Below, one piece after another: positions 1 through 9,099 of a DNA stretch of 9,420 nucleotides (positions are counted from its first letter, which is position 1; every line of letters begins with the position of its first letter). The notes beneath the pieces were generated by a model. It saw nothing but the letters and a program-made list of their open reading frames with translations, searched no databases and was not told the origin of the DNA. The stretch is from a virus (taxonomy: Duplodnaviria; Heunggongvirae; Uroviricota; Caudoviricetes), in IMG/VR virus record IMGVR_UViG_2695420763_000021, positions 1 to 9,420 of that record; one strand, given 5' to 3'. Position numbers and translations under genes: made by a program.

Positions 1-1167
1 ATGAATAGAATCTATCGCGTGATATGGAATTGCACTCTACAGGTATTTCAGGCCTGCTCGGAATTAACTCGCAGGGCAGGTAAAACATCGACGGTTAATT
101 TGCGTAAATCCTCTGGACTGACAACGAAATTCAGTAGATTGACGCTGGGTGTTTTGCTGGCACTAAGCGGTTCAGCGTCTGGTGCAAGTCTGGAAGTTGA
201 TAATGATCAGATTACCAATATTGATACTGATGTTGCTTATGATGCCTACCTGGTTGGCTGGTATGGCACTGGAGTGCTTAATATTTTGGCTGGCGGTAAT
301 GCCTCCTTAACCACTATTACTACCAGCGTCATTGGCGCTAATGAGGACTCAGAGGGCACCGTTAATGTTTTGGGTGGCACCTGGCGATTGTATGATAGCG
401 GAAATAATGCAAGGCCTTTAAATGTGGGTCAATCCGGAACGGGGACGCTGAATATTAAACAGAAAGGTCACGTTGATGGAGGCTATTTAAGACTAGGTTC
501 CTCGACAGGAGGCGTCGGGACGGTCAATGTTGAGGGAGAGGACTCTGTTCTGACGACCGAATTATTCGAAATAGGGAGTTACGGTACGGGCTCATTAAAT
601 ATTACGGATAAGGGTTACGTCACGAGTTCAATAGTCGCCATTTTAGGCTATCAGGCGGGCAGTAATGGCCAGGTTGTCGTTGAAAAGGGCGGTGAGTGGC
701 TAATAAAAAATAACGATTCCTCAATTGAATTTCAAATTGGTAATCAAGGAACGGGGGAAGCGACTATTCGCGAGGGTGGACTGATTACGGCTGAAAACAC
801 GATTATCGGTGGCAATGCTACCGGTATCGGAACCCTGAATGTGCAGGATCAAGACTCTGTCATCACGGTACGCAGACTCTATAATGGATATTTCGGTAAT
901 GGCACACTCAATATTTCCAATAATGGACTAATTAATAACAAAGAATATTCATTAGTGGGCGTTCAGGACGGTTCCCACGGTGTCGTCAACGTGACCGATA
1001 AAGGGCATTGGAATTTCCTCGGAACGGGCGAAGCTTTCCGCTATATCTATATCGGTGATGCTGGCGACGGTGAACTTAATGTCTCGCGTGAAGGTAAAGT
1101 AGATTCGGGAATTATCACTGCGGGGATGAAAGAAACAGGCACAGGCAACATTACTGTTAAGGATAAG
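1..1167 (+). pseudogene. Autotransporter (type Va) adhesin, 5' fragment: extended signal peptide plus passenger-domain repeats, 3'-truncated by IS2
   Basis: ATG at 1. N-terminus MNRIYRVIWN...SELTRRAGK has the extended-signal-peptide pattern of enterobacterial autotransporters, followed by hydrophobic LTLGVLLALSGSASG and repeated GTGxLNI / GNGTLNI / GIGTLNV passenger motifs. The native frame ends at codon 389 (1165-1167) and then reads 28 codons into IS2 before the stop at 1252-1254. No beta-barrel translocator domain is present. Confidence 0.8.
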
Positions 1168-1208
1168 TGGATTTGCCCCTATATTTCCAGACATCTGTTA
1201 TCACTTAA
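1168..1208. repeat. IS2 right terminal inverted repeat (IRR)
   Basis: Imperfect inverted repeat partner of 2457-2498; begins TGGATTTGCCCC. Confidence 0.8.
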
Positions 1209-2084
1209 CCCATTACAAGCCCACTGCCGCAGATATTCCCGTGGCGAGCGATAACCCAGCGCACTATGCGGATGCCATTCGTTATAATGCTCGAACGCCT
1301 CTGCAAGGTTCTTTGCTGCCGTTAACCCGTCTGGTTTGGGCATGATACTGATGTAGTCACGCTTTATCGTTTTCACGAAGCTCTCTGCTATTCCGTTACT
1401 CTCCGGACTCCGCACCGCCGTGTTCTTCGGTTCAAGTCCCAACATCCGGGCGAACTGGCGTGTTTCATTAGCCCGGTAGCATGAACCATTATCCGTCAGC
1501 CACTCCACTGGAGACGACGGAAGATCGTTGCCGAAGCGGCGTTCCACCGCTCCCAGCATGACGTCCTGTACTGTTTCACTGTTGAAGCCGCCGGTAGTCA
1601 CCGCCCAGTGCAGTGCCTCACGATCACAGCAGTCCAGCGCGAACGTGACACGCAGTCTCTCTCCGTTATCACAGCAGAACTCGAACCCGTCAGAGCACCA
1701 TCGCTGATTGCTTTCTTTCACGGCCACTCTGCCTGTATGTGCCCGTTTCGATGGCGGTACAGTAGGTTTTCGCTCAAGCAACAGCGCATTCTGGCGCATG
1801 ATCCGGTAAACACGTTTGGCATTGATCGCAGGCATACCATCAAGTTCTGCCTGTCTGCGAAGCAGCGCCCATACCCGACGATAACCATACGTGGGCAGCT
1901 CTCCGATAACATGGTGTATACGGAGAAGCACATCCGTATCATCAGTGTGACGACTGCGGCGGCCATCCATCCAGTCATCGGTTCGTCTGAGAATGACGTA
2001 CAACTGCGCACGCGACACCCGGAGACAACGGCTGACTAAGCTTACTCCCCATCCCCGGGCAATAAGGGCGCGTGCGCTATCCAC
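1179..2084 (-). CDS. insD: IS2 transposase OrfB (InsD), DDE integrase-like catalytic domain
   Basis: 301-aa ORF inside IS2. The translation (e.g. ...[18 protein letters not shown]...[11 protein letters not shown]...[18 protein letters not shown]) matches IS2 InsD as recalled. Its 5' end overlaps orfA in the -1 frame. Confidence 0.9.
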
Positions 2085-2407
2085 TTTTTTGCCCGTCCAT
2101 ATTCAACGGCTTCTTTGAGGAGTTCATTTTCCATCGTTTTCTTGCCGAGCAGGCGCTGGAGTTCTTTAATCTGCTTCATGGCGGCAGCAAGTTCAGAGGC
2201 AGGAACAACCTGTTCTCCGGCGGCGACAGCAGTAAGACTTCCTTCCTGGTATTGCTTACGCCAGAGAAATAACTGGCTGGCTGCTACACCATGTTGCCGG
2301 GCAACGAGGGAGACCGTCATCCCCGGTTCAAAGCTCTGCTGAACAATTGCGATCTTTTCCTGTGTGGTACGCCGTCTGCGTTTCTCCGGCCCTAAGACAT
2401 CAATCAT
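2042..2407 (-). CDS. insC: IS2 transposase OrfA (InsC), HTH DNA-binding subunit
   Basis: Start placed at the internal ATG 2407..2405 ([24 protein letters not shown]...), giving 121 aa. The track ORF extends upstream to 2452 but that reads through the IRL-proximal sequence. Confidence 0.88.
2084..2090 (-). other. A6G slippery heptamer for programmed -1 ribosomal frameshift (OrfA to OrfAB fusion transposase)
   Basis: Minus strand reads AAAAAAG at 2090..2084, inside the orfA/orfB overlap and at the 5' end of the orfB frame. IS3-family elements, including IS2, use this motif. Confidence 0.6.
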
Positions 2408-2456
2408 CTGTTCTCCAATGACTAGTCTAAAAACTAGTATTAAGACTATCACTTAT

Positions 2457-2498
2457 TTAAGTGATACTGGTTGTCTGGAGATTCAGGGGGCCAGTCTA
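2457..2498. repeat. IS2 left terminal inverted repeat (IRL)
   Basis: Ends ...GGGGGCCAGTCTA at 2498; partner of 1168-1208. Confidence 0.8.
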
Positions 2499-2696
2499 AG
2501 ATTCCCCGAAACGCTTCTCCATAAATAATTCATAGGCTGCTCGTTCATCCGATACTGCTGCCAGTGATGCCTGTGCAATTTTTAATGCGGTAAGCATGTT
2601 GTTTTGATCTTCATCGAGTCCGAACGGTATTTCATCCCGTGCTGACTCAATGCTGGTAATCGTGTTCTGTAACCATTCTTTGGTAAGAGTATTCAT
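2496..2696 (-). pseudogene. Hypothetical phage early protein, probably 3'-truncated by IS2 (66 codons remain)
   Basis: ATG 2696..2694 with AAGGTGA about 9 nt upstream. The frame runs straight into IS2, and its stop codon TAG (2498..2496) is the terminal 3 nt of the IS2 IRL. The N-terminal 45 aa are paralogous to the 155-aa ORF at 2892-3359. Confidence 0.5.
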
Positions 2697-2698
2697 AA

Positions 2699-2890
2699 CT
2701 ATTTCACCTTAATCTCAACATTTCGCAGCTTTAGCTCTACTGGCAAGTCTGACTTTCCTGTTAATGCTAATGCGAGATTTTCAGGAGTAATGAGAGCAGT
2801 TATTGTTTTCCCCATCGCCAGACGAATAATCATTCGTATCTCGCGATCGTCACATGCTCCCGGTCGAACAATTGATATTTGTCCGTTCAT
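2699..2890 (-). CDS. Hypothetical small phage protein (63 aa; alternative start at 2911 gives 70 aa)
   Basis: ATG 2890..2888 is preceded by AAGGAGA at about 6 nt spacing and sits 1 nt after the stop of the upstream ORF. The stop at 2701..2699 is followed 2 nt later by the next ATG. Confidence 0.5.
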   Translation of the reverse strand: MNGQISIVRPGACDDREIRMIIRLAMGKTITALITPENLALALTGKSDLPVELKLRNVEIKVK

Positions 2891-7205: not shown

Positions 7206-7859
7206 TCAAAAATCCATTATTACTTGTTTGACAAGACCAACTATTCTGCAGTTTTCACCGCATTCAATAGTTTTATAGTTAGGATTTAGTGGGACGAGAT
7301 ACCTGTTCGGCCAGTCCTCAACAAATTTTTTGAGTGTCGCTTCTTGCCCACCATTGATATGGGCAACAACGATTTTTCCGTTAATACACTCTGTATCAAT
7401 AATATCTGGCTCTACGATAACGATAGAACCTTCTGGTATCGATGGTGAGCCGAGGGGATTGGTCATTGAATCACCACGGACCCGTAGTGCAAATGCCATT
7501 TCTGATACAAGGGCGGTAGTATAAACCCACTCTTCAGCATCTTCTTTCCTGACACCAGGCTCCGTCATTGTCCATGAACCCGCCTGAACCCACGAGATGA
7601 GGGGGACTTTTTTAACTGCGAATATTTCAGGTTTTAGATTTATCTTTGGTTCAGGCGAGCCTTTTCCGCTAACAAGCCACAGAGGATCGCATTTAAGTGC
7701 GTTGGCTAGGGCTTGAAGGTTGGCTCCATTTGGTTGGTAGTCGTCCTTTTCCCATCCAGTAACCGTGACACGGTTCACACCAGTCAAATCAGCCAGTGCT
7801 TGTTGTGTCAGGTTCAGTTCTTTTCGCCTTTGGCGAATACGATCACTCATGTTCATCAT
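7206..7859 (-). CDS. CI-type prophage repressor: N-terminal HTH (XRE family) plus C-terminal S24 LexA-like autopeptidase
   Basis: 217 aa. HTH segment LTQQALADLTGVNRVTVTGWE. Ala-Gly cleavage-site context VQAG (as in lambda CI). Catalytic Ser in RVRGDSM and Lys in ATLKKF. The start ATG lies within operator OR-a, so the transcript is leaderless or nearly so, as for lambda pRM. Confidence 0.85.
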   Translation of the reverse strand: MMNMSDRIRQRRKELNLTQQALADLTGVNRVTVTGWEKDDYQPNGANLQALANALKCDPLWLVSGKGSPEPKINLKPEIFAVKKVPLISWVQAGSWTMTEPGVRKEDAEEWVYTTALVSEMAFALRVRGDSMTNPLGSPSIPEGSIVIVEPDIIDTECINGKIVVAHINGGQEATLKKFVEDWPNRYLVPLNPNYKTIECGENCRIVGLVKQVIMDF

Positions 7860-7954: not shown

Positions 7955-8152
7955 ATGCGGAAATCCGACGTGATTAATTATTTCGGCGGAGTTTGTAAAA
8001 CCGCCGAAGCCCTAGGTATTAAGCATCCGTCTGTTTCAGAGTGGCCTGAGATTATTCCTGAAGGCCGAGCGTACCAGTTAGAAAAAATTACTAACGGGAA
8101 ACTGAAAGTTGACGTGTCTTTATATCAAAAGACTAACAGTGCTGCGGCATAA
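7955..8152 (+). CDS. Cro-like HTH regulator (65 aa)
   Basis: First gene after pR and divergent from the repressor. INYFGG...KTAEALGIKHPSVSEW resembles lambda Cro ([25 protein letters not shown]). Confidence 0.75.
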   Translation: MRKSDVINYFGGVCKTAEALGIKHPSVSEWPEIIPEGRAYQLEKITNGKLKVDVSLYQKTNSAAA

Positions 8153-8179: not shown

Positions 8180-8764
8180 GTGGGTAAAGAACCTGAATGG
8201 AAAGTTGATAAACAACCAGCATGGCTGGTGGCAGCAATACGAAGAACGATTGCTGATTTACCTCATGGCTATGAGGAAGCAGCAGAAATTCTTGGTTTGT
8301 ATAAATCTGATGATATCACCCCAGCAAAAGATCAATTGCATAACAGACTGCGTAGCGGTGGGGATCAAATTTTTCCACTTGAGTGGGCCATGGTTTTACA
8401 GGATGCCAGTGGTACCAGGCATGTAACAGATGCAATAGCCCGTCGTAGTAATGGGGTGTTTGTGCCGCTGGTGGTCATTGATGACATTGACAATGGTGAC
8501 ATTAATCAGCGGCTGATGGAGTCAATAGAATGGATTGGCAAGCATTCCCAGTACTTACGCAAGGCAACTGCTGATGGAGTTATTGACCAGGCTGAGCGTG
8601 AGCAAATCGAAGAGAACAGCTACCAAGTAATGGCGAAGTGGCAGGAGCATTTAACACTGTTATTTCGTGTTTTTTGTGCGCCGGAAAAGAGTAACGCCCG
8701 CGAGTGTGCAGCTCCGGGCGTCGTGGCGTCGATTGCTTCTGGTTGTGGAGAAACTAACGCATGA
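8180..8764 (+). CDS. CII-like phage regulatory protein (194 aa; possibly the phage CII/CP76-type family)
   Basis: GTG start 8180 with GAGGA 7 nt upstream. It sits directly after cro as cII does in lambdoid phages. The family assignment is from memory of CP76-type CII proteins, not a verified alignment. Confidence 0.5.
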
Positions 8765-9099
8765 ACAGTTTAACAACACACTACCGTCGCTCGCAACTGA
8801 TTGCGCTTCCTGTACCGGGTGGAAAAGCGAAGGTGGAGTATTGCTATGCAGTGAATGTACCAGGTGACAGGGAAATTGTAACCCACAGATTTGCAGAGTG
8901 GGCTGTGGGTGATTTCAACCGGCAGAAGGAGACAGTCCTTTGCAACAAGTTAACCGCTGGTTCAAAGATCACTACGGAGTGCCCGTCAGAGTCATTCGTT
9001 GGGAACCGGAAACACAACGGGTTATCTACCTCCGCGAAGGCTATGAGCATGAGTGCTTCAGTCCGCTCGAACAGTTTCGTCGTAAATTCAGGGAAATAG
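8761..9099 (+). CDS. Hypothetical protein (112 aa as called); the C-terminal half looks out of frame, so a frameshift is possible
   Basis: ATG 8761 overlaps the cII-like stop as ATGA. The first 55 to 60 residues look protein-like. The remainder ([53 protein letters not shown]) is Ser-rich and low-complexity, while the -1 frame over the same DNA reads as a well-formed peptide. Confidence 0.4.

Follow-up and report, generated by a model that had tools for sequence, protein, structure and literature searches.

The stretch of DNA analysed here, which we call the window, comprises the last 9,420 nt of CYCV01000022.1, a 46,198-bp draft WGS contig (assembly GCA_001286025.1; a literature search with this assembly accession returned no match). 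In it, a complete IS2 element lies between the 5′ part of an autotransporter gene and the early region of a lambdoid prophage. The features are as follows.

1..1167, plus strand: 5′ 1,167 nt (codons 1–389) of an ECSE_1600-family (yneO-type) autotransporter gene, at the K-12 yneO locus between lsrK and hipB
1..1254, plus strand: fusion ORF of 417 codons, 389 from the autotransporter and 28 encoded by IS2, the tail being read from the IRR inwards
1163..1167: left pentamer ATAAG, the would-be duplication if IS2 had simply inserted into yneO
1168–2498, minus strand (transposase genes): complete IS2, 1,331 bp, with the IRR at the left and the IRL at the right of the window
1168..1208: IRR, imperfect inverted repeat, TGGATTTGCCCC..., also given as TGGATTTGCCCCTATATTTCC...
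1179..2084, minus strand: orfB (InsD), 301 codons, Pfam HTH_21 plus rve and rve_3 (DDE domain)
2042..2452, minus strand: orfA (InsC), Pfam HTH_Tnp_1
2457..2498: IRL, imperfect inverted repeat, ...GGGGGCCAGTCTA, reading TAGACTGGCCCCC from outside
2496..2696, minus strand: first 66 codons of a truncated DUF551-family phage ORF, whose stop is the TAG of the IRL
2499..2503: right pentamer AGATT, the would-be duplication if IS2 had simply inserted into the phage gene
2699..9420: early-left and immunity regions and start of the replication region of a lambdoid prophage, with yfdR/yfdQ/yfdP-like genes
7206–7859, minus strand: cI-like repressor (HTH and S24, Pfam)
7955–8152: Cro, with Pfam matches in the region
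8180–8764: CII/CP76-like gene
Up to the contig end, which it runs off: partial HTH_36 replication gene

The element is identical at every position of its 1,331 bp to annotated copies in other E. coli genomes, and in relatives it is annotated as an IS3-like element IS2 family transposase with programmed frameshift. Its identity follows from its length together with the IRR and IRL, the overlap of orfA and orfB, and the −1 frameshift site A6G (AAAAAAG at 2090..2084; cttttttg on the plus strand at 2084–2091). The inverted-repeat arms at 1176–1208 and 2457–2489 are 79% complementary, and the terminal sequences agree with those published for IS2 (PMC3299598). The copy lacks a 5-bp target duplication, which leaves its identity unaffected. 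IS2 is common in the species: a full copy was present in 4,059 of 5,426 complete E. coli genomes, with a median of four matching places per genome. An Rfam scan of the window gave no matches.

To the left of the element, the autotransporter sequence is 100% identical over its 1,167 nt to that of E. coli W and at least 24 other complete genomes. Alleles identical across this part still differ by 5–7 residues downstream, and among complete genomes the best match to the source strain reaches only 99.2% identity across the 11-kb left flank. The intact gene has 5,421 nt and 1,806 codons. In relatives the synteny is lsrK-gene-hipBA-dif, and the contig shows the left side of this order. The original prediction, made from the sequence, had the autotransporter frame entering the IRR after codon 389 and acquiring a 28-codon tail from the IS, which is precisely the ORF at 1..1254. 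The fusion ORF retains Pfam ESPR at residues 1–47 and is without codons 390–1806, which make up the bulk of the passenger and all of the C-terminal part; the exact 417-codon protein is recorded for contig CYCV01000022.1 and no other. A search of yneO for internal repeats that might be the source of contig breaks near codon 389 found none. The gene is a repeated target of IS2.

To the right, the phage ORF runs leftward from 2696 to 2496, and its stop is supplied by the terminal TAG of the IRL, as had been proposed. All 66 residues are identical to the N-terminus of a 244-aa protein (comparator locus L012), in which the DUF551 domain occupies residues 174–241 and is hence lost from the truncated ORF; the exact 66-aa product was found on this contig only. 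That TAG might be the native stop of the phage ORF was suggested by megablast matches starting at 2495. This is ruled out by the intact phages, which read TCTAC|AGATT and whose ORF runs to 244 codons, and the apparent 4-nt extension of the matches is an effect of gapped alignment.

The prophage segment is 99.3–99.6% identical to prophages located at dusA in complete genomes, and in all 12 long comparators it lies at zur-yjbLM-dusA in a single orientation. Prophages of the dusA-integrating kind insert in the 5′ end of dusA and carry a dusA-associated tyrosine integrase (PMC4482086). The window holds neither an att site nor int, and the prophage part missing from the contig amounts to about 2.4–4 kb, comprising the C-terminus of the DUF551 protein, a 3′-5′ exonuclease, a PrtN-like gene, small cargo genes and attL. 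The original prediction also had the int region lost along with the left arm. This is not supported, since the integrase is at the opposite end of the prophage, adjoining dusA at the late-gene end in a 99.6%-identical prophage. attL is absent from the contig, and the location of the prophage in the source strain is judged from these relatives.

Comparison with uninterrupted relatives fixes both breakpoints to the base. Intact yneO reads ...GGATAAG|AACTCCG (four loci) and the intact phage reads ...GGCGATCTAC|AGATTCCCC (11 loci; GATCTAC|AGATTCCCC around the breakpoint). The two flanks therefore derive from two different loci, each cut exactly at an IS2 terminus, as in a hybrid-IS junction, and relative by relative each flank runs on into its own gene. 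The truncation of both genes at the IS2 ends is thereby confirmed, as is the statement that they are unrelated and convergent, one being an ESPR autotransporter and the other the N-terminus of a DUF551 phage protein.

Junction and contiguity searches covered the 5,426 complete E. coli genomes. In none (0/5,426) were the two flanks contiguous without IS2 or within about 800 bp of each other, and in none was either IS2 junction present. Neither junction was found in viral, metagenome or species-representative collections, the reciprocal junctions (phage-left...CTACAGATT-IS2-ATAAGAACTCC...yneO 3′) were absent from the viral and metagenome collections, and both junction-specific ORFs are on no other contig in a gene-position index.

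The absence of a target duplication, ATAAG on one side and AGATT on the other, was checked against control copies delimited by the same 1,331-bp ends, two in the same autotransporter gene and six from finished genomes. The insertions in the yneO-type gene of strain 503025 (after nt 1550, GCCAC/GCCAC) and of O111:H2 12A (after nt 1682, GTATT/GTATT) have perfect duplications, as do four of the six further copies. Duplications were thus seen in six of eight sampled copies and in two of eight there was none; hybrid flanks occurred in one of the eight (L024). These copies validate the end definition, and no shift of the ends in the window yields a 5-bp repeat. The flanks share AG only (1166–1167 and 2499–2500), for which the chance expectation is 1 in 16. 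Given that there is no 5-bp duplication, the two flanks of the window cannot belong to one simple insertion. The sequence-level statements of the original prediction were therefore all accurate; what was built on them, a deletion or rearrangement junction, stands in part, in that the pair of flanks does not reflect one simple insertion but derives from two loci.

The chromosomal geometry bears on how the join is to be read. In MG1655 coordinates, yneO maps to 1.597 Mb, oriC to 3.926 Mb and dusA to 4.262 Mb, placing yneO and dusA about 2.66 Mb apart. On the side that a deletion would have removed, dif is only about 6.1 kb from the break. If the prophage is at dusA, the orientation of the yneO-prophage join is of the inversion type and not of the deletion type. 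Adjacency of yneO and phage would then imply inversion of 2.66 Mb, or 57% of the chromosome, oriC included, leaving oriC about 0.34 Mb from dif. A literal join is costly because dif is next to one flank and dusA, for the other, is near oriC. Strong replichore imbalance is selected against (PMC2134941; PMC4173774), and large inversions that start at the replichore junction disturb division (PMC2585057).

The explanation we favour, at a probability of roughly 0.5, is that the assembler joined two separate IS2 insertions by way of a repeat in which they had been collapsed. The two joints would belong to two IS2 copies that had each inserted simply, one into yneO with a 5-bp duplication of ATAAG and the other into the phage gene with one of AGATT. 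Identical copies would have been collapsed by short-read assembly, the contig then running from the 5′ part of yneO into the repeat and out of it into phage sequence. That no duplication is seen, and that the 3′ end of the adhesin gene and a prophage arm seem to be lost, would then be due to the way the contig was built and not to any event in the chromosome. Each flank-to-IS2 joint is nevertheless real at the level of the reads.

Several lines of evidence argue for such a bridge. The contig is a draft, and an element of 1,331 bp is normally too long to be bridged by short-insert read pairs. IS2 is usually multi-copy, and probably so in this strain; yneO and the same prophage family both take simple IS2 insertions, one of the latter being in comparator L010. 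The uniqueness of the junctions among complete genomes, other collections and indexed contigs points the same way, as does the 2.66-Mb inversion that a literal join would need if the prophage sits at dusA, as it probably does. Mismatched flanks around an IS inside a draft contig are also a classic sign of sequences joined via a collapsed repeat, and repeats at least as long as the reads are a source of contig breaks and misassemblies (PMC5771137). A chimera would be expected to leave separate contig ends, ...CTACAGATT+TGGATTTGCC or CCAGTCTA+ATAAGAACTCC, and with two copies the partner ends ...GGCGATCTACAGATT+TGGATTTGCCCC and GGGGGCCAGTCTA+ATAAGAACTCCGTT should be present elsewhere in the assembly. 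Against an assembly bridge stands the fact that IS2 without a duplication is real and not rare in finished genomes (two of eight). Moreover, when copies are equally covered a scaffolder usually refuses the choice, so that a bridged IS2 mildly favours a single copy, and if IS2 is single-copy in the strain the contig must be right.

A more tentative explanation is that the join is real, IS2 copies in yneO and in the DUF551 gene of the prophage having recombined, so that the window is one of two reciprocal hybrids. Such recombination leaves exactly this arrangement, flanks from two loci meeting at IS2 ends with no duplication; hybrid flanks are also present in L024, and in evolving E. coli IS × IS recombination accounts for about 70% of the large rearrangements (PMC4173774). 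Homology between the copies could give either of two outcomes. One is a chromosomal inversion between the loci, which, if the prophage is at dusA, would cover 2.66 Mb, take in oriC and be strongly counter-selected. The other is Hfr-like: an excised circular phage bearing IS2 would have recombined with yneO::IS2, or been fused into it through an IS2 dimer, so that the entire phage would sit within yneO, flanked by two IS2 copies in direct orientation. This circle integration raises no replichore problem and requires no gene loss. The IS3 family, IS2 included, transposes by a two-step minicircle route (PMC3299598), and IS families that use such a route can form tandem dimers with a reactive IR-IR junction, as described for IS30 (PMC9333248). 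Both insertions are unique to this assembly and hence recent, which leaves little time for a further event; and as recombination keeps two IS2 copies, a short-read contig that passes through one of them deserves no more trust here than under a chimera. That the contig is correct and the prophage at dusA as well, the isolate carrying a ~2.66-Mb IS2 × IS2 inversion, is highly improbable, as is the milder version in which an IS2-bearing phage genome was caught in yneO through IS2 homology, as in Hfr formation.

It is unlikely that a single IS2 with an adjacent deletion accounts for the window. The prophage would once have lain a short distance beyond yneO in the strain, and an IS2-associated deletion, or recombination of two direct copies, would have removed the 3′ end of yneO, the intervening DNA and the attL-side arm of the prophage, with one IS2 left. 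This would explain why the contig crosses the element, a single copy being no repeat, and IS2 beside a small deletion without a duplication is known from finished genomes, namely espX1::IS2 with 13 bp missing (2015C-3163, EC20017429 and UTAK-14). The prophage, however, is at dusA and not near yneO in 12 of 12 comparators, and its orientation there gives an inversion-type adjacency that a deletion cannot reach. A deletion that extended to a prophage beyond hipA would take out dif, and in no complete genome do the two flanks lie less than about 800 bp apart. To our knowledge, long adjacent deletions are not characteristic of IS3-family elements, which follow a copy-out-paste-in course through a circle (PMC3299598). 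A deletion origin of the junction is thus not credible, and this part of the original prediction is not supported, given the dusA site, the orientation and dif. Finally, simple insertion with misplaced ends, or insertion into a pre-existing yneO-phage junction, has in its favour the shared AG dinucleotide alone and is almost certainly wrong, given six controls with perfect duplications, flanks that continue separately and contiguity in none of 5,426 genomes.

Whether the contig was bridged in assembly or the copies recombined, the IS2 activity is of a kind already known. On every reading IS2 has, at the read level, interrupted both an adhesin gene and a phage accessory gene, which is routine for this element. 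Were the join true, it would represent a natural and extremely asymmetric inversion, or capture of a prophage through IS homology; an inversion would mean that extreme replichore imbalance, with one end about 6 kb from dif, survived outside the laboratory. The biological weight of the finding is small and its value mainly cautionary: a missing target duplication in a short-read contig does not by itself amount to a deletion or an inversion.

The closest parallels are the simple IS2 insertions in yneO (503025; O111:H2 12A and the K-12 CV601 lineage, both after nt 1682), which involve the same 1,331-bp element (99.5–99.8% identical) in the same target gene, at most 520 bp from the site in the window and in either orientation. 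These have gene halves on both sides and the GCCAC or GTATT duplications, whereas the copy in the window has phage on one side and no duplication. espX1::IS2, in finished genomes, is likewise an intact IS2 without a duplication; unlike the window copy, both of its flanks are from the same gene and only 13 bp are gone, not kilobases to megabases. In the formation of Hfr strains, IS2 and IS3 of the F plasmid recombine with chromosomal copies. Products of IS × IS recombination (PMC4173774) resemble the window in having one flank per parental locus, breakpoints at the IS ends and no duplication, but they are defined by a reciprocal copy, whereas the window shows one junction pair. The inversion implied here would also be far more asymmetric than those that natural populations or the long-term evolution experiment have tolerated. 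Compared with the repeat misjoins published for short-read assemblies (PMC5771137), the chimera in the window is a candidate, its IS2 copy number being presumed. Like them, it involves a draft contig, a repeat that probably exceeds the read length and flanks whose usual loci are far apart, and its junction was seen in no other assembly.

The window carries a complete IS2 between the 5' part of an autotransporter gene and a lambdoid prophage:

1168-2498, transposase genes on the minus strand, complete IS2 (1331 bp)
window-left end of IS2, right inverted repeat, IRR (TGGATTTGCCCC...)
window-right end of IS2, left inverted repeat, IRL (...GGGGGCCAGTCTA)
2452..2042, minus strand, IS2 orfA
2084..1179, minus strand, IS2 orfB
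2090..2084, A6G frameshift site of IS2

The element is canonical IS2, 100% identical over its full length to copies that other E. coli genomes carry (a full-length copy is present in 4059 of 5426 complete genomes). Window 1-1167 comprises codons 1-389 of an ECSE_1600-family autotransporter gene, which occupies the yneO locus of K-12, with lsrK on one side and hipB on the other, and measures 5421 nt when uninterrupted in E. coli W. From 2499 onward the window holds the early-left, immunity and early replication region of the prophage, where the leftward ORF 2696..2496 matches codons 1-66 of a DUF551-family protein (66/66 residues; 244 aa in comparison locus L012) and lacks the DUF551 domain itself (residues 174-241 of the intact protein). 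As the original prediction held, the autotransporter frame continues for 28 codons into IS2, giving ORF 1..1254 (417 aa), and the TAG of IRL supplies the stop codon of the phage ORF.

Uninterrupted relatives (...GGATAAG|AACTCCG in four yneO loci; ...GGCGATCTAC|AGATTCCCC in 11 phage loci) place both breakpoints to the single base, and the predicted truncation of both genes at IS2 is thus borne out. The pentamers outside the element, ATAAG on the left versus AGATT on the right, are mismatched, in agreement with the claim that a target duplication is absent. The end definition is validated by control copies that share these 1331-bp ends and lie in the same autotransporter gene, flanked by GCCAC/GCCAC in strain 503025 and GTATT/GTATT in O111:H2 strain 12A, so no correction of the ends restores a duplication here; perfect 5-bp repeats also surround four of another six IS2 copies taken from finished genomes. 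When the two flanks were joined without IS2 and used as a query, they were contiguous or less than ~800 bp apart in none of the 5426 complete genomes. The original observation thus stands in full, and neither of the outcomes that would have refuted it occurred. Elsewhere, an IS2 in espX1 (L021 1501-2831, strain 2015C-3163; also EC20017429 and UTAK-14) has no target duplication (AAAAG / AGTCG), and 13 bp of espX1 are absent relative to intact alleles, so finished genomes do contain a small deletion beside IS2.

IS2 recurs in the yneO-type gene, with four insertion points across strains within about 520 bp (loci: window 1-1167; L006 9551-10881; L007 6596-7926):

after nt 1167, window
after nt 1550, strain 503025, opposite orientation
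about nt 1656, OkiPb01717, inferred from spacing
after nt 1682, O111:H2 12A and the K-12 CV601 lineage

In 51 complete genomes an IS2 IRR end is found no more than about 520 bp downstream of the point where IS2 sits in the window, and the pattern suggests a hot spot for IS2 in this region. On 11 draft contigs, the longest of 498 kb, there is a 388-aa 'partial' protein with the sequence of the window allele (P0003; window 1-1166); it carries no IS2-encoded residues, stops 1-3 nt short of the IS2 site and could reflect an insertion at this or a neighbouring position in related isolates. Alignment of the source strain with E. coli W (L004 1001-11167, where 10001-11167 corresponds to window 1-1167) gives 84 mismatches over an initial 8.6 kb that extends from the lsr operon to lsrK. 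The final 1557 nt, which begin 390 nt upstream of yneO and reach the IS2 site, are free of mismatches, suggesting a recombination boundary just upstream of yneO. In a hypothetical simple yneO::IS2 insertion, the 3' part of yneO would share its reading frame with a TTG that lies 26-28 nt from the IRL tip.

On the phage side, a predicted 54-codon ORF (2364-2528, plus strand) starts at a GTG within IS2 and runs outward via IRL into the flank. Mosaicism is seen at the DUF551 gene (window 2499-2890; L001 6001-6470): a common 66-codon N-terminal module joins varied C-terminal parts, and the resulting proteins range from 165 to 299 aa among prophages. Contigs of many draft assemblies break inside this gene. 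In another strain, whose prophage is of the window's family, the homologue of window ORF 8761..9099 carries an IS2 (L010 1-1253, UGBS01000001.1), some hundreds of bases short of the window's contig end.

Exact-sequence look-up placed both the fusion ORF (417 aa) and the truncated ORF (66 aa) on a single contig in the index, CYCV01000022.1 (46,198 bp; draft E. coli assembly GCA_001286025.1), of which the window is the final 9420 nt. Neither the yneO-IS2 nor the IS2-phage junction was found in any complete E. coli genome searched or in the viral, metagenome and species-representative collections. The closest complete genome to the 11-kb left flank is only 99.2% identical, indicating a source lineage without a finished relative.

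Both flank-to-IS2 joints are real at read level under every model, and the models differ over whether the two share one IS2 copy; the quantities that decide between models, IS2 copy number and prophage location in the source strain, we infer from relatives. We assign a probability of about 50% to an assembly join across two separate IS2 copies. Two simple insertions, one in yneO flanked by ATAAG and one in the DUF551 gene flanked by AGATT, would have been linked by the assembler via the collapsed IS2 repeat (compare PMC5771137). This reading is favoured because a draft contig crosses a 1.3-kb element that is usually multi-copy in E. coli, because the junctions were found in this assembly only and because the literal structure is geometrically costly. 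Simple IS2 insertions are known in both targets: yneO has them after nt 1550 and nt 1682, and the prophage family has one in L010.

The geometry follows from the chromosomal positions in MG1655:

1,592,665-1,598,086, minus strand, yneO
3,925,744, oriC
4,261,669, plus strand, dusA

In 12 of 12 long comparators with the same early-left genes, the prophage lies at zur-yjbL/M-dusA' in a single orientation. That of GU2018_CL13, 99.6% identical to the window, reads dusA, integrase, tail/head/lysis/Q, replication, cro, cI, DUF551, exonuclease, PrtN-like gene, zur. Because its integrase adjoins dusA, opposite the DUF551 end, the integrase lies outside the missing arm, and the proposed loss of the int region is not supported; only about 2.4-4 kb of phage DNA is missing. 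The window runs down-coordinate along yneO and then up-coordinate along the prophage, which, if the source strain has its prophage at dusA, is a join of inversion topology that deletion cannot produce.

Real recombination between IS2 copies, the main biological rival, is possible but tentative. IS x IS events are the commonest origin of large E. coli rearrangements (PMC4173774), and two of eight sampled IS2 copies of finished genomes lack a duplication. It could take the form of an asymmetric inversion. More plausibly, a phage circle carrying IS2 would have excised and then integrated, in Hfr-like fashion, into yneO::IS2. For a prophage at dusA in the source strain, the inverted segment would be 2.66 Mb including oriC, and the distance between oriC and dif would shrink to about 0.34 Mb. 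Cell division is disturbed by large inversions that begin at the replichore junction (PMC2585057), and selection acts against strong replichore imbalance (PMC2134941; PMC4173774).

The adjacent deletion originally proposed, with a single IS2, offers the simplest account of a short-read contig running through the element, but is improbable: it needs a prophage adjoining yneO in the source strain, and either a prophage site between yneO and dif or loss of dif, which follows hipA at 77 nt and is some 6.1 kb away from the IS2 site, on the supposedly lost side. A simple IS2 insertion is excluded by flanks that are contiguous in none of the 5426 complete genomes and by the absent duplication. The literal structure would merit attention only if confirmed by long reads; an IS copy with hybrid flanks, biological or assembly-made, is of a kind already well known.
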